From IMG/VR virus record IMGVR_UViG_2576861104_000010: 45,889 bases of DNA; one strand, written 5' to 3'. The position numbers were made by a program, and so were the translations under genes. Of this stretch, positions 2,622 to 45,889 are shown one piece after another (position 1 is the first letter of the stretch; each line of letters opens with the position of its first letter). The stretch is from a virus (lineage: Duplodnaviria; Heunggongvirae; Uroviricota; Caudoviricetes). The notes beneath the pieces are model-generated. The model saw nothing but the letters and a program-made list of their open reading frames with translations, was not told where the DNA came from and did not search any database.

Positions 2622-2843
2622 TCAGATAATGGTTTTAAGTAAAGTGTACAGGATCGGCTCTGCCTTTACCTGTTTATGGTTCTCGTCATAGAAACGCCAG
2701 CGACCGCGCGTGCGTTCTATTTTCTCTTCACCGCGCGATAATGACAGTTGGCAACTATCACGATCAAACCCTTTTGCCCGCCAGTAACCACGGTTTTTCT
2801 CAAGCTCAAGATGAGTGGACACTTTAGCAGTTGAATATCCCAT
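2622..2843 (-). CDS. cra: Small cre-associated protein, 73 aa
   Basis: ORF immediately upstream of and co-oriented with cre, between loxP and cre, start preceded by AGAGGTG; symbol is from recalled P1 annotation. Confidence 0.5.
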   Translation of the reverse strand: MGYSTAKVSTHLELEKNRGYWRAKGFDRDSCQLSLSRGEEKIERTRGRWRFYDENHKQVKAEPILYTLLKTII

Positions 2844-3032
2844 TTTTCACCTCTGATTGATTGGTGGTGCTAAGTGCGCTACGCGAAATCTGTAGGACTA
2901 ACACCGCCAATTTTTCACAGATTTTACGTAGCGCAACCTTGATCAAATGATCAAGTGATCACTATTTGACCTGCCAAGGTATTGAACTGTATGGATTTAC
3001 AGGTAAATTGATCATATTCAATAACCCTTAAT

Positions 3033-3066
3033 ATAACTTCGTATAATGTATGCTATACGAAGTTAT
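3033..3066 (+). other. loxP recombination site (34 bp)
   Basis: Exact ATAACTTCGTATA-ATGTATGC-TATACGAAGTTAT: two 13-bp inverted arms around an 8-bp spacer. Confidence 0.97.
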
Positions 3067-3109
3067 TAGGTCTGATGAGGAGTTTACGTCCAGCCGTGTA
3101 GAAAAATCA

Positions 3110-3126
3110 AGAATTATTAGAGCAAT
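3110..3126 (-). promoter_or_regulatory. C1 operator-like site (ImmC region)
   Basis: Reverse complement ATTGCTCTAATAATTCT. Confidence 0.6.
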
Positions 3127-3193
3127 AAAAAATTGAGAGTAAAATCCCACTCCACCAGCCAAATACTGGATTGTTTTTCATAGTCGTTTGGCA

Positions 3194-3210
3194 ATTGCTC
3201 TAATAAATTA
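3194..3210 (+). promoter_or_regulatory. C1 operator (ImmC region, upstream of coi)
   Basis: ATTGCTCTAATAAATTA, one mismatch to consensus. Confidence 0.7.
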
Positions 3211-3448
3211 TAGTTTTGCCGCCGTTTCGTAATACGACTTTGGACTCACTACTTAATGTGTCTTCAGCGTTGTAGAGCGGCTCAGAAGGAAATGAGCAAA
3301 CAGGGAAACCTTATACAACGGCATTACCGCTATGCATTGCTCATCTTACACACAGCGCAATGTTGATAGATAACCCCAGCATGGAACATGGGTGAAACAG
3401 TAGGTCAGAGCTTCAGGCTCTGTGTTGTCAATACAGTGAGGCATAATT

Positions 3449-9982: not shown

Positions 9983-11545
9983 ATGAAAATGACAAGTATT
10001 CAACAACGTGCAGAGCTTCATCGTCAAATCTGGCAAATTGCTAACGATGTCAGGGGTTCGGTCGATGGATGGGATTTTAAGCAATACGTTCTGGGCGCAC
10101 TTTTCTACCGTTTTATCAGCGAAAATTTTTCCAGCTATATTGAAGCCGGTGATGACAGTATCTGTTATGCGAAACTGGATGACAGCGTAATTACTGATGA
10201 CATTAAAGACGATGCCATCAAAACCAAAGGCTACTTCATCTACCCAAGTCAGCTTTTCTGCAACGTAGCTGCGAAAGCAAATACTAATGACAGACTGAAT
10301 GCAGATTTAAACAGCATCTTCGTTGCTATCGAAAGTTCTGCTTACGGTTACCCTTCAGAAGCTGACATCAAAGGTTTGTTTGCTGATTTCGATACCACCA
10401 GTAACCGCCTGGGTAACACCGTTAAGGATAAAAATACCCGCCTGGCCGCGGTTCTGAAAGGGGTTGAAGGATTAAAACTTGGCGACTTCAACGAACATCA
10501 GATTGACCTGTTCGGCGATGCCTATGAGTTCCTGATTTCTAACTATGCGGCGAATGCCGGTAAGTCCGGCGGCGAGTTCTTTACACCGCAGCACGTCTCT
10601 AAGCTGATTGCACAACTGGCAATGCACGGCCAGACCCACGTTAACAAAATCTACGACCCGGCAGCAGGTTCCGGTTCGCTGTTATTGCAGGCTAAAAAGC
10701 AGTTTGATGACCACATCATCGAAGAAGGTTTTTTTGGTCAGGAGATCAACCATACGACCTATAACCTGGCGCGTATGAACATGTTTTTGCACAACATCAA
10801 CTACGACAAGTTTGATATCAAGCTGGGCAATACGCTGACTGAGCCGCACTTCAGAGATGAAAAACCGTTTGATGCCATCGTTTCTAACCCGCCGTATTCG
10901 GTGAAATGGATTGGCAGCGATGACCCGACGCTGATTAACGATGAACGTTTTGCCCCGGCTGGCGTTCTGGCCCCCAAATCCAAAGCTGACTTTGCGTTTG
11001 TATTACATGCGCTGAACTATCTTTCTGCCAAAGGTCGTGCTGCGATTGTCTGCTTCCCGGGCATTTTTTACCGTGGCGGCGCGGAGCAGAAAATCCGTCA
11101 GTATCTGGTTGACAATAACTATGTCGAAACCGTGATTTCACTCGCACCGAACCTGTTCTTTGGCACCACCATTGCCGTAAATATTCTGGTGCTGTCTAAA
11201 CATAAAACGGATACCAAAGTTCAGTTTATTGATGCCAGCGAACTGTTCAAAAAAGAGACTAACAACAACATTCTGACCGATGCCCATATCGAAAAAATTA
11301 TGCAGGTATTTTCCAGCAAAGAAGATGTTGCCCATCTGGCAAAATCTGTCGCGTTTGAGGCCGTTGTCGCGAATGACTATAACCTGTCAGTGAGCAGCTA
11401 TGTAGAAGTGAAAGATAACCGCGAAACTATCGATATTGCTGAGCTAAATGCTGAGCTGAAAACCACGGTCAGCAAAATCGACCAGTTGCGTAAAGATATT
11501 GATGCGATTGTGGCTGAAATTGAAGGCTGCGAGGTGCAGAAATGA
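9983..11545 (+). CDS. hsdM: Type I R-M methyltransferase subunit HsdM, 520 aa
   Basis: N6-adenine methyltransferase NPPY motif (IVSNPPYS), AdoMet-binding ([10 protein letters not shown]); 520 aa as in EcoR124-type HsdM; stop overlaps the hsdS start. Confidence 0.9.
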
Positions 11546-12771
11546 GCGAGTTGAGTTATCTGGAAAAATTGCTGGATGGGGTTGAGGTTGAGTGGGTACC
11601 TGTATCAGAACTATTTCAAATTAAAAATGGGTATACACCTTCAAAATCCAAGAAAGAATTTTGGGAGAATGGAACCATTCCATGGTTCAGACTAGAAGAT
11701 GTCAGAGTCAATGGTAGGGAATTAAATGATTCTATCCAACACATAAATCCATTAGGAGTTAAAGGTTGTCTGTTCCCGAAAAACTCTATTTTCATGTCTA
11801 CAACAGCTACCATTGGGGAGTATGCTTTAGTAAGGGTCCCTTATTTAACAAATCAACAAATCACAAACTTTTCCATTTCTGAAAAATTCAGTGAAGCGGT
11901 CAATATAAAATATATTTTTTATAGGTTTTATGATTTCGGCAAGTGGTGTACGGAGAATGCTAATAAAAGTGGTGGAGTATCTATAATTGGACTCAAAAAA
12001 CTGTCTCAATATCAGTTCCCAATCCCTTGCCCGGATAATCCGGAAAAATCCCTTGCCATCCAGTCTGAAATCGTTCGGATTCTGGATAAATTTACTGCAC
12101 TTACCGCTGAGCTTACCGCTGAGCTTAACATGCGTAAAAAACAGTACAACTACTATCGTGACCAGTTGTTGAGGTTTAAAGAGGGTGAGGTTGAGTGGAA
12201 GGCATTGGATGATGTTTTTGACATTGTTGCAGGCGGCGATGCACCAAAAGATGCCTTATCCGAATTTGAGACCGAGGAATTCAGCATCCCCGTTTTATCA
12301 AACGGTATAGGTAATAAATCACTATATGGATGGACTGACAGAGCCAAGATTGAGAAACCGAGTCTCACCATATCTGCAAGAGGTACTATTGGATGGACTA
12401 GCTATAGAAGTAGACCATTCTTTCCGATAGTGCGACTGCTGGTCTTGACGCCAAAAATTAAATTAAACTTGAAGTACGCTTATTACTTCATGAAAACCAT
12501 TGAGAATAATTACAAAATCCCTGAGGCAGGCATACCCCAGCTAACTAAACCGATGCTCAAAGACATTAAAATCCCCTTCCCATGCCCCGGTAATCCGGAG
12601 GAATCTTATAACGAACAAGCCAGAATCGCAGCGACTCTCGACAAATTTGACGTCTTAACAAATTCGATTACCGAAGGTCTTCCGCGTGAAATCGAGTTGC
12701 GCCAGAAACAATACGAGTACTATCGTGATTTACTGTTCAGTTTCCCAAAACCCAAAACTGTCAGTAATTAA
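11542..12771 (+). CDS. hsdS: Type I R-M specificity subunit HsdS, 409 aa
   Basis: Two target-recognition domains separated by a conserved central region ([24 protein letters not shown]) with a matching C-terminal repeat ([18 protein letters not shown]); ATGA overlap with hsdM. Confidence 0.85.
12103..12126 (+). repeat. Two tandem copies of a 12-bp repeat (ACCGCTGAGCTT) in the hsdS central conserved region
   Basis: Read directly; encodes TAEL-TAEL. In EcoR124I versus EcoR124II the copy number of this repeat sets the spacer length of the recognition site. Confidence 0.8.
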
Positions 12772-42234: not shown

Positions 42235-42744
42235 ATGGGGCACAATAACACTAAGGGAAACCGTAAATTTATTAAGGGCCGCTATACTGCCAACGCGGCC
42301 AAAGGCGAACGACTGGTATCTTCTGAATTCCAGCTCACTTTTGCAGGCCATGAAGATATCAGCGTACTGGTTCGCACGTCGCAAATTCCTGAAATGACCC
42401 GCGAGGATGTGGAGGACTATGGTCCGAATGGTGTGAAGTTCAACCAGCACGGTCCAATTCGAAACTCTGGGGAAATCCAGGTCCAGTGCGTGGAGACTAT
42501 CGAAGGCGATATTCTTCAGTTCATTAAAGATCGCATTGCGGCGAAGGACTATGTTGATATCACGATGGCTGCTACCCCTGAATCCAAATCTTCCGGGGTT
42601 AACGCTGTGACAAAAGCTGCTACAACAATTGAAATGTTGGACTGCAAAATCTACAGTGATGCAATCGACTTTAGTACCGAAGATGTGACTGCCGCTGTGC
42701 GCCCGTCACTTCGTATCGTCTACAACTGGATTGAGTGGGATTAA
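42235..42744 (+). CDS. Hypothetical tail-associated protein, 169 aa
   Basis: Last gene of the operon, followed by a GC-rich hairpin (GGGGGAGGT...CCTCCCC) at about 42770-42795. Confidence 0.4.
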   Translation: MGHNNTKGNRKFIKGRYTANAAKGERLVSSEFQLTFAGHEDISVLVRTSQIPEMTREDVEDYGPNGVKFNQHGPIRNSGEIQVQCVETIEGDILQFIKDRIAAKDYVDITMAATPESKSSGVNAVTKAATTIEMLDCKIYSDAIDFSTEDVTAAVRPSLRIVYNWIEWD

Positions 42745-42963
42745 GTGTTATCCCTTGTACTTTTAATCTTCTTCGGGGGAGGTTTACCTCCCCTTGATAC
42801 AACCGCATTCCACCGCCTAGCGAATAGAGTAAAATAACATCTTGTAAATACTCTGGTATGAAGTGAGTGTAAACTAACAGTTACCTATTAATAAATACTC
42901 CTATACTTTTCTACCTTAAATATTTAGTATGCACATGGTTAAATTTATGTAGCGTCAAAGTTT

Positions 42964-44034
42964 GTGAAGGCAAGATGTCCGTTAATCTTTGTCGAAGCAT
43001 ATATGGTTCTAGGAAGTATTGGCTTATTTAAGAGGAATGTCATGTTACGTATCAATGATATGAGCAATATTATTGTAGGTATTTACAGCAAAAAAAATGA
43101 AGAAAAATCATTTGAGTATATGTACTCTTATCTGACAAGGAAAACAGCTTATTTAACACGTGAGTTTATTCGTGATGGTAATCAGGATAAAGAATTATTA
43201 AAAAATACCTATATAGAAGCATTGTCTTGGCTTTTTGCAATCTGTGATAAACTTGAAATACAACCACAGGAAGCATTTTATAAAAAATTTCCTAGTTGCT
43301 GTCCTTATTGCTTAGGGGCGCCTTGTTCCTGTTCTCAAACACACAGAAAGCCAGAGAAAATAAGAAGCGCAAAAGGAATTAAAGATGAGCTTTTCAATAA
43401 ATATAACGCTATTAAACCTATGCAATTTCCGCCTTATGCGCCACGAATGATTAATGACATCTATCCGTCGAATAGAACCATTTGGTCTACTTTTGGTGGG
43501 TTTTATCATTCATCCAGGTTATTCGAAGAGTTGGGTGAGTTGCAAGAGGCTTATGCTAAATCAATTGAAGATAAAAATTACAACAAAGAAAATCTTCATG
43601 AAGAGTGTGCTGATATATATGCTTGGTTGTTTTCTTTATGGGGGATTATTTTTAAAGATGATGATCTTGGCGAGGCGTTTGAAAGTTATTATCTAAATGG
43701 TTGTCCTGTCTGCAATAAAAGAGAATGTGTTTGTGTCAGTTATTCAGGGAAGATTAGTAAAACTGATGAGAAAAGAGCATCATTGGAAAAACTTAAACAA
43801 GAGTTAGAACTTCTCTTGAAGGATGAGACGACAGGTGAGTTTAAGGAGAATTTAGAGTCTGCTATATCTGCAATTAAAGATGCGATAGACTCAGGAAAAG
43901 ATGCAGATAGCAGAAGAACTTTATCGGAAGTCGAAAGTGTTCTTGACTCAATCGAAAAAAATTCAGCCAAGATGTCTAGTGTGGCAAGTAACGCCCTTAA
44001 TGTTTTTAATGTAATCAGTAAGTTATTCCAATAA
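42964..44034 (+). CDS. Hypothetical protein in an AT-rich island with MazG-like motifs and two zinc-ribbon-like Cys clusters; probable start ATG about 43042 (about 330 aa)
   Basis: EELGELQEAY...EECADIYAWLFSLWG resembles the EExxE...ExxD core of MazG/all-alpha NTP pyrophosphohydrolases; CCPYCLGAPCSC and CPVCNKRECVC clusters; coiled-coil C-terminus; strong RBS AAGAGGA before the internal ATG. Confidence 0.55.
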   Translation: MKARCPLIFVEAYMVLGSIGLFKRNVMLRINDMSNIIVGIYSKKNEEKSFEYMYSYLTRKTAYLTREFIRDGNQDKELLKNTYIEALSWLFAICDKLEIQPQEAFYKKFPSCCPYCLGAPCSCSQTHRKPEKIRSAKGIKDELFNKYNAIKPMQFPPYAPRMINDIYPSNRTIWSTFGGFYHSSRLFEELGELQEAYAKSIEDKNYNKENLHEECADIYAWLFSLWGIIFKDDDLGEAFESYYLNGCPVCNKRECVCVSYSGKISKTDEKRASLEKLKQELELLLKDETTGEFKENLESAISAIKDAIDSGKDADSRRTLSEVESVLDSIEKNSAKMSSVASNALNVFNVISKLFQ

Positions 44035-44376
44035 TGGTGCCCACCGGTTTGTTAGAAAATGAACCGGTGTTGTATTATTTATTATTAAATTAATTTTAAT
44101 CCTAATAGATGGATGTTTGTTGTGGATATAATTTGTTTAAGTTTTAGGTGTATTTTTCCATATATAATCTAGGTGGTATTAGCAAAGCAAGTATGGAATT
44201 TTGTTAACAGCTAGATATTTCTGAAAGTCATCATGTCGCGAAGGCTATTGGGAGATATGGTCTGAATCTTTGCATGATGTGAAATAACTCCTTCTACTTC
44301 ATTGTGTTTTACACTATTGGGGAGAAAAGGGTGCATTGAGGTTACCAGACACACGAAAAGTGGCGGGGATCACTCC

Positions 44377-45715
44377 CATAAGCGCTAACTTAAGGGTTGT
44401 GGTATTACGCCTGATATGATTTAACGTGCCGATGAATTACTCTCACGATAACTGGTCAGCAATTCTGGCCCATATTGGTAAGCCCGAAGAACTGGATACT
44501 TCGGCACGTAATGCCGGGGCTCTAACCCGCCGCCGCGAAATTCGTGATGCTGCAACTCTGCTACGTCTGGGGCTGGCTTACGGCCCCGGGGGGATGTCAT
44601 TACGTGAAGTCACTGCATGGGCTCAGCTCCATGACGTTGCAACATTATCTGACGTGGCTCTCCTGAAGCGGCTGCGGAATGCCGCCGACTGGTTTGGCAT
44701 ACTTGCCGCACAAACACTTGCTGTACGCGCCGCAGTTACGGGTTGTACAAGCGGAAAGAGATTGCGTCTTGTCGATGGAACAGCAATCAGTGCGCCCGGG
44801 GGCGGCAGCGCTGAATGGCGACTACATATGGGATATGATCCTCATACCTGTCAGTTCACTGATTTTGAGCTAACCGACAGCAGAGACGCTGAACGGCTGG
44901 ACCGATTTGCGCAAACGGCAGACGAGATACGCATTGCTGACCGGGGATTCGGTTCGCGTCCCGAATGTATCCGCTCACTTGCTTTTGGAGAAGCTGATTA
45001 TATCGTCCGGGTTCACTGGCGAGGATTGCGCTGGTTAACTGCAGAAGGAATGCGCTTTGACATGATGGGTTTTCTGCGCGGGCTGGATTGCGGTAAGAAC
45101 GGTGAAACCACTGTAATGATAGGCAATTCAGGTAATAAAAAAGCCGGAGCTCCCTTTCCGGCACGTCTCATTGCCGTATCACTTCCTCCCGAAAAAGCAT
45201 TAATCAGTAAAACCCGACTGCTCAGCGAGAATCGTCGAAAAGGACGAGTAGTTCAGGCGGAAACGCTGGAAGCAGCGGGCCATGTGCTATTGCTAACATC
45301 ATTACCGGAAGATGAATATTCAGCAGAGCAAGTGGCTGATTGTTACCGTCTGCGATGGCAAATTGAACTGGCTTTTAAGCGGCTCAAAAGTTTGCTGCAC
45401 CTGGATGCTTTGCGTGCAAAGGAACCTGAACTCGCGAAAGCGTGGATATTTGCTAATCTACTCGCCGCATTTTTAATTGACGACATAATCCAGCCATCGC
45501 TGGATTTCCCCCCCAGAAGTGCCGGATCCGAAAAGAAGAACTAACTCGTTGTGGAGAATAACAAAAATGGTCATCTGGAGCTTACAGGTGGCCATTCGTG
45601 GGACAGTATCCCTGACAGCCTACAAAACGCAATTGAAGAACGCGAGGCATCGTCTTAACGAGGCACCGAGGCGTCGCATTCTTCAGATGGTTCAACCCTT
45701 AAGTTAGCGCTTATG
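44377..45715 (+). mobile_element. IS186 (IS4 family), complete, about 1339 bp
   Basis: Perfect 23-bp terminal inverted repeats CATAAGCGCTAACTTAAGGGTTG at 44377-44399 and 45693-45715 around a single transposase gene. Confidence 0.85.
44426..45544 (+). CDS. IS186 transposase (IS4-family DDE), about 370 aa
   Basis: Protein begins M(PM)NYSHDNWSAILAHIGKPEELDTSARNAGALTRRREIRDAATLLRLGLAYGPGG, matching recalled IS186 transposase; the true start may be the Met at 44432. Confidence 0.85.
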   Translation: MPMNYSHDNWSAILAHIGKPEELDTSARNAGALTRRREIRDAATLLRLGLAYGPGGMSLREVTAWAQLHDVATLSDVALLKRLRNAADWFGILAAQTLAVRAAVTGCTSGKRLRLVDGTAISAPGGGSAEWRLHMGYDPHTCQFTDFELTDSRDAERLDRFAQTADEIRIADRGFGSRPECIRSLAFGEADYIVRVHWRGLRWLTAEGMRFDMMGFLRGLDCGKNGETTVMIGNSGNKKAGAPFPARLIAVSLPPEKALISKTRLLSENRRKGRVVQAETLEAAGHVLLLTSLPEDEYSAEQVADCYRLRWQIELAFKRLKSLLHLDALRAKEPELAKAWIFANLLAAFLIDDIIQPSLDFPPRSAGSEKKN

Positions 45716-45736
45716 GGTTTTACCCCCGCGTGGTGG

Positions 45737-45889
45737 CTACTTCTTCGATTCGTAAGCGAGAACTGCCTTAAACTCCATACCACGTTCTCTGATACTCAAC
45801 TCACACAACGAGTCGCCTACCATCAGCGTGAATCCCAGTACTGTAAAACACAGCACTATGATTGCCACAAGGGCATATTTTGTCAGCAT
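45737..45889 (-). CDS. hok: Hok/Gef-family type I toxin (hokE-like), 50 aa
   Basis: [50 protein letters not shown] has the Hok membrane helix plus C-terminal ...AYES/EPKK signature; start codon is at the last base of the window, so mok/sok are not visible. Confidence 0.8.

Follow-up and report, generated by a model that had tools for sequence, protein, structure and literature searches.

The described systems closest to the gene analysed here include two groups, one defined by fold and the other by outcome. First, the MazG/all-alpha nucleoside triphosphate (NTP) pyrophosphohydrolases, namely SSO3215 (PDB: 1vmg), YpjD (2gta), 2q73, 5ie9 and DCTPP1/RS21-C6, form a known superfamily of helical enzymes with EExxE...ExxD residues. 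Second, the nucleotide-depletion defences (dCTP deaminase, AvcD, dGTPase and PUA-Cal-HAD) remove NTPs or deoxynucleoside triphosphates (dNTPs) that an infecting phage needs. In some PUA-HAD systems, a MazG-like domain is reported to substitute for the dNTP-depleting calcineurin effector (10.64898/2026.01.15.699771), and DefensePredictor counts MazG as a defence domain that is predicted but unvalidated (PMC13092281). Here we describe a 330-amino-acid (aa) tandem MazG-like zinc protein (WP_000944483.1), which is encoded by the only open reading frame (ORF) of an AT-rich island and carries the PGAP product name "MazG-like family protein". Its coding sequence spans positions 43042..44034 on the plus strand of a 45,889-nucleotide stretch of viral DNA (IMG/VR record IMGVR_UViG_2576861104_000010), hereafter the window, which belongs to a P1-like (IncY) phage-plasmid. 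The superfamily is known, whereas the tandem-plus-knuckle architecture and the role we propose for it are undescribed: the literature searched contained no paper naming WP_000944483.1 and none reporting a validated MazG-type defence, and the accession was not in the supplements of PMC13092281 that we examined. At a rough probability of 45%, we propose that this is a nucleotide-hydrolysing gene that would protect the carrier cell or lysogen against other phages; its catalysis, its substrate class and its anti-phage role are all things we infer from domain anatomy, fusions and genomic contexts.

The protein consists of two halves that share homology (BLASTP 6e-6; hhalign 94%, E=1e-7), each followed by a four-cysteine (Cys4) knuckle, plus a tail, with all parts encoded on the plus strand. 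First, a degenerate MazG-like unit occupies the N-terminus (aa 1-83; 43042..43290), which has lost both EExxE and ExxD and retains SW62-63, and it is closed by a first knuckle (aa 84-99; 43291..43338), C87-P-Y-C90 ... C95-x-C97, with cysteines present in 155-157 of ~157 aligned relatives. Second, the C-terminal MazG unit (aa 133-217; 43438..43692) carries E162, E163, E166, (E169), E188, D191 and W195, and ends in a second knuckle (aa 218-233; 43693..43740), C221-P-V-C224 ... C229-x-C231, with cysteines in 168-169 of 169 aligned relatives. Third, a helical tail (aa 237-330; 43750..44031) is predicted to form four helices. The sequence-only reading had proposed a protein combining the EExxE...ExxD motif pair of MazG enzymes with two Cys4-like clusters and a long coiled-coil tail. 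The motif pair was found, in the C-terminal unit only, as FEELGE (aa 161-166) and EECAD (aa 187-191), both invariant in the close family, and E162, E163, E166, E188 and D191 are retained in ~90% of 175 diverse relatives. The two clusters were also found, as CPxC-x4-CxC at aa 87-97 and 221-231, one ending the helices of each half; they too are invariant in the close family, their CxxC...CxC spacing is that of a zinc ribbon or knuckle, the eight cysteines are conserved in ~100% of these relatives, and both sites would presumably bind metal. The coiled coil was not borne out: the tail (aa 237-329) was modelled as a bundle of four helices of ~20 residues each, with a predicted local distance difference test score (pLDDT) of 62-83, and not as one coiled coil. 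The knuckle regions were modelled at a lower pLDDT of 54-73.

Assignment to the superfamily depended on family profiles. As a single sequence, the protein reached Pfam MazG (PF03819) at E=0.037 and 14.7 bits, under the 22-bit cut-off, and phrog_2245, an NTP pyrophosphohydrolase family, at E=3.5e-6; NCBIfam returned only sub-threshold or chance matches. A profile built from 96 family sequences matched 1vmg at E=3.2e-11 through the N-terminal unit (positions 6-83), and through the C-terminal unit it matched 2q73, 2q5z and 5ie9 at 3e-7 to 6e-5, with values up to 6e-3 when YpjD is included; DCTPP1/RS21-C6 was matched weakly. Pfam MazG was also hit by 40 of the 96 relatives, at best with 4e-11. Foldseek searches against PDB and BFVD gave no match at E<=0.001, with NTP pyrophosphohydrolase entries among the weak BFVD matches, and the predicted protein has the all-alpha helical-bundle fold of the MazG/HisE/dimeric-dUTPase type. 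The earlier description of a MazG-type protein therefore holds at the level of the family profile, but what is encoded is a tandem pseudo-dimer and not a single MazG domain. Unlike the MazG/all-alpha enzymes with which it shares its helical fold and the acidic residues of its C-terminal unit, the window protein is made of two fused units, the first of them without catalytic acids, and adds CPxC..CxC knuckles and a 95-aa helical tail. It differs further from the dimeric dUTPases of a phage (5myd) and C. jejuni (1w2y), with 7% identity; these enzymes lack zinc knuckles and the tail, and the conserved dUTPase sequence motifs are missing from the window protein. As a whole, the domain arrangement favours an active enzyme, with the product predicted to be an all-alpha NTP pyrophosphohydrolase in pseudo-dimeric form.

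Close relatives of the protein are very rare: in a set of 5.8 billion proteins they make up 28 clusters (90% identity). An exhaustive profile search with a threshold of E<=1e-3 recovered 992 clusters (50% identity), 101 of which reached E<=1e-30, and the family has members in Enterobacterales, Bacteroidales, Clostridia and Planctomycetes. A homologue search with the 96-sequence alignment added one further protein only, and a closer alignment found 5 loci among 100,044 species genomes. This tandem MazG-zinc family, of ~1,000 clusters at 50% identity, is without a described function. Architectures were counted in the best 175 of the 992 clusters: 93 have the core plus tail, 28 are a bare core of ~230 aa (the tail is missing in ~16% of relatives), 33 are partial or unclassified, and 21 are fusions, 11 N-terminal and 10 C-terminal. 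The fused domains comprise TIR at either terminus, dCMP/cytidine-deaminase-like domains, Ser/Thr kinases of the PD-T4-6/mad6-like type, and GGDEF, which replaces the tail, whereas TIR comes after it. PADLOC matches in these fusions fall on the added TIR, kinase and deaminase parts, never on the tandem MazG module; for the window protein itself PADLOC v2.0.0 gave only a chance-level match to the LmuB coiled coil (E=0.015), and for five solitary relatives none. The view that this architecture is not a named system thus stood, with no PADLOC model covering the module.

Such fusions bear on two readings. The module might be mainly a nucleotide-binding sensor or regulator, one that reads a nucleotide signal or pool and passes the result to an output, be it the TIR, kinase, deaminase or GGDEF domain of the fusions, a membrane partner in a sister clade (see below), or the helical tail in the window protein. 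In favour of this, a constant module is linked at either end with interchangeable effector-type domains, it stands in the N-terminal 'sensor' position before GGDEF and in the C-terminal variable position after PD-T4-6/mad6-like kinases, and one of its halves is already a pseudo-enzyme. However, the catalytic acids of the C-terminal half persist in ~90% of relatives, most fusions included, the bare 230-aa modules lack an output domain, and no effector domain could be recognised in the window protein, so that we regard a purely sensory module as unlikely. The second reading, which we hold possible but less than probable, is that the tandem MazG-zinc module is an unrecognised building block of nucleotide-centred immunity, which alone would act as a single-gene defence destroying a specific (d)NTP or phage-modified nucleotide, and elsewhere would be wired to TIR, deaminase, kinase, GGDEF and membrane effectors. 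The proposed outcome would be that of the nucleotide-depletion defences, and the module has relatives that carry dCMP-deaminase-like domains as fusions or have P-loop nucleotide kinases as partners; it differs from those defences in its catalytic fold and in having no deaminase, HD or kinase domain in the window protein. The DefensePredictor MazG/MazG-C systems are similar in that a MazG domain predicted to be defensive is paired with a nucleotide kinase, but they comprise several genes and contain further domains (NMAD, UDG) (PMC13092281).

Relatives of the gene occur as cargo in mobile elements of several types. In a P2-like prophage, a copy 77-79% identical lies between S and V, in the slot of the nonessential orf30 of P2; the P1-type and P2-type copies have only the coding sequence in common, with DNA homology beginning at 43030 and different flanks. 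P2-like prophages also have copies at their ends. In lambdoid prophages, copies are found between replication or methylase genes and ant/NinG/Q, in the early-right region, and in one of these prophages the copy is oriented opposite to the replication genes. In E. mendocina, a copy lies in an integrase-bearing element. A full-length homologue, 29% identical, is the sole accessory gene of an 8-kb filamentous phage of Vibrio cyclitrophicus (Tubulavirales; PQ189347.1, 6649-7641), where it stands between gene I (zot-like) and a regulator. As an AT-rich, self-contained gene between operons, the window gene resembles the content of phage 'moron' slots (orf30, old/tin and Z/fun in P2; pmgF-rlfA-rlfB in P1), and reservoirs of defence genes are known from P2 hotspots (PMC9122126); the hotspot documented for defence in P2, however, is the gpA-gpQ (old/tin) locus and not the S-V slot.

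These same contexts bear on the possibility that the gene serves the phage itself, while it replicates or grows lytically. It might do so as an NTP pyrophosphatase for house-cleaning or pool shaping, or through a counter-defence that destroys chain-terminator nucleotides such as ddhNTPs, alarmones or precursors of immune signals. The gene is co-directional with, and downstream of, the late operon, behind a weakened terminator, the lambdoid copies lie between replication genes and Q, the catalytic motif of MazG is preserved, MazG genes are widespread in phages, and NTP pyrophosphohydrolase entries are among the weak BFVD matches noted above. Against this, the family is present in only 1 of 50,697 isolated phage genomes, namely the filamentous phage. 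Filamentous phages are generally non-lytic, so a role in lytic growth seems unlikely there. The gene is also missing from P1 and from most P1-like elements, and is thus dispensable for the phage cycle; one prophage copy is transcribed against its neighbours; and TIR, deaminase and kinase fusions, like the membrane partner, are typical of host-side immune proteins. A phage-serving gene is the main alternative, to which we give about one chance in four, short of what we allow for an anti-phage one; its strongest grounds are the position behind the weakened late-operon terminator and that in the lambdoid early regions. Protection of the carrier against other phages fits the spread of the gene, as dispensable and self-contained cargo, through four temperate or chronic kinds of phage that are unrelated, and it fits the immune-type fusions and the membrane partner.

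The membrane partner belongs to a sister clade with 53-56% identity (Pantoea/Pectobacterium type), in which a gene for a 245-248-aa protein with two transmembrane (2-TM) helices always lies 60-75 nt downstream of the MazG-like gene. The partner has its transmembrane helices at the N- and C-termini and a coiled-coil middle, and belongs to no Pfam or PADLOC family; together, the two genes look like a two-gene system. The sister-clade loci are L006, L007, L008, L011, L026, L034 (partner, for example, at 11069-11806) and L035. We looked for a remnant of the 2-TM gene in the window and in the 76-79% clade, and none was found.

More divergent homologues connect the family with nucleotide metabolism. 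In three pseudomonads (L037, 8615-9643; L039, 10001-11020; L041, 10001-11002) the homologue lies directly 3' of nrdA-nrdB on the same strand, an adjacency that reflects a functional link with dNTP synthesis or else a hotspot of integration. At L041 the homologue is followed by an Mrr-type nuclease, and L039 has a cluster with a mad3-like (MADS-like) ATPase and a 999-aa kinase. In a metagenome-assembled genome (MAG) of Oscillospiraceae (L030, 4563-6277), the gene of a pVip-kinase/VakA-like nucleotide kinase (PADLOC 6e-34) abuts the start of that of a 271-aa tandem MazG protein in an operon, and in a Bacteroidales MAG (L031, 848-6555) a deaminase-tandem-MazG fusion adjoins a SIR2-STAND-TPR protein. 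The viperin-type nucleotide kinase and the nrdAB association do link the family to nucleotide metabolism, without specifying whether phage or host is the beneficiary, and in that sense they suit a phage-serving gene as well. A link to the mazEF toxin-antitoxin system was also considered, and nothing in the neighbourhood supports it.

On this basis the anti-phage mechanism may be outlined as follows. The two MazG-like helical units of one chain would pack like the halves of a dimeric dUTPase or like a MazG homodimer, the C-terminal unit alone would bind Mg2+ through its EExxE...ExxD residues, and each unit would be closed by a Cys4 knuckle, presumably holding zinc, while the four-helix tail could possibly contribute to oligomerisation or regulation. 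The enzyme would hydrolyse a nucleoside triphosphate to the monophosphate and pyrophosphate. Deaminase fusions, nucleotide-kinase partners and nrdAB adjacency suggest that its target would be deoxynucleotide or nucleotide pools, and the substrate would most plausibly be a deoxynucleotide, or else a phage-specific or non-canonical one. A cell with the phage-plasmid would then be shielded from other infecting phages by nucleotide depletion or cleansing, an outcome resembling that of the dCTP-deaminase and dGTPase defences.

Several points weigh against this proposal. PADLOC models, as mentioned, do not match the module, and all family members are experimentally uncharacterised. The window copy has neither a partner gene nor a recognisable regulator or immunity gene, so that activity on canonical dNTPs would need some further control. 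No convincing promoter emerged from a scan upstream of the coding sequence, and the bplB terminator that precedes the island is altered, such that read-through from the late operon could serve lytic growth. Virulent phages, too, often carry MazG-type genes, which are believed to benefit the phage. Defence neighbourhoods amount to ~20 loci, which are anecdotal and not a statistical enrichment, and the varied fused domains could equally make the module a sensor and not an effector.

The gene has practical value as a compact single-ORF candidate in E. coli, on a P1-like element with well-developed genetics, in which the MazG defence prediction is directly testable. If the anti-phage role is correct, pyrophosphohydrolysis would be a new enzymatic route among nucleotide-depletion defences, it would become clear why four temperate or chronic kinds of phage that are unrelated carry the same gene as cargo, and ~1,000 uncharacterised clusters, together with their TIR, deaminase, kinase and GGDEF fusions, would gain a function. 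If the module is a building block of immunity, the gene would be the first MazG-type defence that is tractable by experiment, with E. coli as host and a manipulable phage as carrier. If it serves the phage instead, a new gene for counter-defence or pool control would have been described.

The island that carries the gene is an insert of 34.0% GC (42778..44316, plus strand), which stands in place of 11 bp that, in P1-like plasmids without it, separate the bplB terminator from the 3' end of the hok locus. To its left lie the P1 genes 23, 22, 21, pmgG and bplB, the last of which (42235..42744, plus strand), annotated as such in P1 and P1-like plasmids, ends the late tail/baseplate operon. In 300-nt steps the GC content is 0.31-0.38 over 42800-44300 and ~0.50 on either side, with 0.52-0.57 within the insertion sequence IS186; in 1.5-kb steps, with a mean of 47.8% (standard deviation 3.4%), the island is the minimum of the entire window, ~4 standard deviations under the mean. 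As boundary reference we used a P1-like plasmid without the island (L002; CP056627). Its sequence is collinear with 42600-42777 and 44317-45757 of the window, segments that are only 11 bp apart in the plasmid, and this places the insert at 42778-44316. Single-nucleotide differences from this plasmid are scattered from 42746 onward, ahead of the insert edge. The sequence-only reading had described marked AT-richness from about 42800 and a separate acquisition, both of which agree with these data, and had set the right end at 44376, against IS186; the true end lies ~60 bp earlier, at about 44316, the last 61 bp being the 3' part of a hok locus (44317..44377, minus strand), which is outside the island and common to plasmids without the island and without IS186. 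Terminal direct or inverted repeats of the island did not exceed chance matches in AT-rich DNA, and hence it has no transposon-like ends. At the left junction, a hairpin without a T tract, GGGGAGG-TTTA-CCTCCCC in the alignment (42773..42790, plus strand), replaces the bplB terminator of P1 and L002, GCTCC-TTCG-GGAGC followed by T6, so that late-operon transcription might read into the island.

Regarding gene signals, the strong ribosome-binding site, start codon and terminator attributed to the gene were all located: a Shine-Dalgarno sequence AAGAGGA (43030..43036) 5 nt ahead of the ATG at 43042, and an intrinsic terminator (44042..44079), both on the plus strand, the latter with a 12-pair stem (44042-44069), a 4-nt loop and a T-rich tail, its hairpin being present in the minimum free energy fold. 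Sigma-70 promoter scores upstream of the coding sequence were not above background (5 sites versus 6.5 expected). Rfam had no match within 42600-45889, and neither the 5' nor the 3' non-coding part has a better fold than shuffled sequences (z=-0.33 and -1.15), which leaves a riboswitch or small RNA unsupported. Comparison with the P2-type copy gave dN=0.14 with saturated dS and a dN/dS of roughly 0.05; the gene is under purifying selection.

The island occurs in 17 of ~598 matching PLSDB plasmids and in 19 of 5,426 complete E. coli genomes, on plasmids every time, and in none of 15 matching phage records; P1 itself lacks it. Its copies are 99.6-99.9% identical, and the ORF is intact and identical across all 17 plasmids. 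These figures bear on whether the gene belongs to the ordinary morphogenetic genes of P1 or is a decaying, functionless passenger, as might be thought from its position next to tail/baseplate genes and from the 'putative morphogenetic' pmgF that occupies the slot in P1. Yet it has no homology to P1 genes, and its distribution, its intact ORF with dN/dS of ~0.05, and motif residues all conserved across ~1,000 clusters effectively exclude both possibilities, the first of which the sequence-only reading had itself named as fatal to its view. None of the refuting outcomes that it had listed was encountered, and its interpretation is supported. The island is best explained as a horizontally acquired single-gene accessory cassette in a variable slot between bplB and the hok/repL region.

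This slot exists in at least three states, namely pmgF-rlfB-rlfA in P1 (L003, 4129-5759, with rlfA annotated as DUF3800), hok in most plasmids, where IS186 may or may not accompany it, and the MazG-like gene plus hok here. Among the listed plasmid matches in two pieces, the flanks are 173 bp apart in the record, which indicates that hok directly follows bplB. This variety suggests that the bplB-repL slot is a variable cargo site of P1-like elements, and it would emerge as such whichever role the gene has; the literature searched contained no description of it as a variable cargo site or defence hotspot.

IS186 (44377..45716, plus strand; transposase ORF 44426-45544) is missing at this site in eight to ten island carriers and present at the exact site in plasmids without the island, so that the two insertions are independent events and a joint arrival is ruled out. 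The former placement of the island between the tail operon and IS186 thus stands on the bplB side, but not on the other, where the 3' part of hok intervenes. A coding sequence for a 50-aa hok-family toxin follows (45737..45889, minus strand), and the corresponding position is annotated as hokD in both L001 and L002; the hok allele right of 45757 is unlike those of either plasmid. IS186 lies ~20 bp 3' of this coding sequence and splits it from its mRNA 3' end region (44317-44377), and a matching target duplication is absent at its ends. The arrangement recalls the chromosomal hok loci of E. coli K-12 disrupted by IS186 or IS150.

Two other stretches of low GC content were noted in the window. 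The first (11400-12200; 0.36-0.39) matches hsdS/hsdM, of type I restriction-modification, in other P1-like phages. The second (2800-3400; 0.38-0.40) covers the cre/cra/coi/c1 immunity region, is 97% identical to P1-like phages, and appears to be ordinary P1 backbone.

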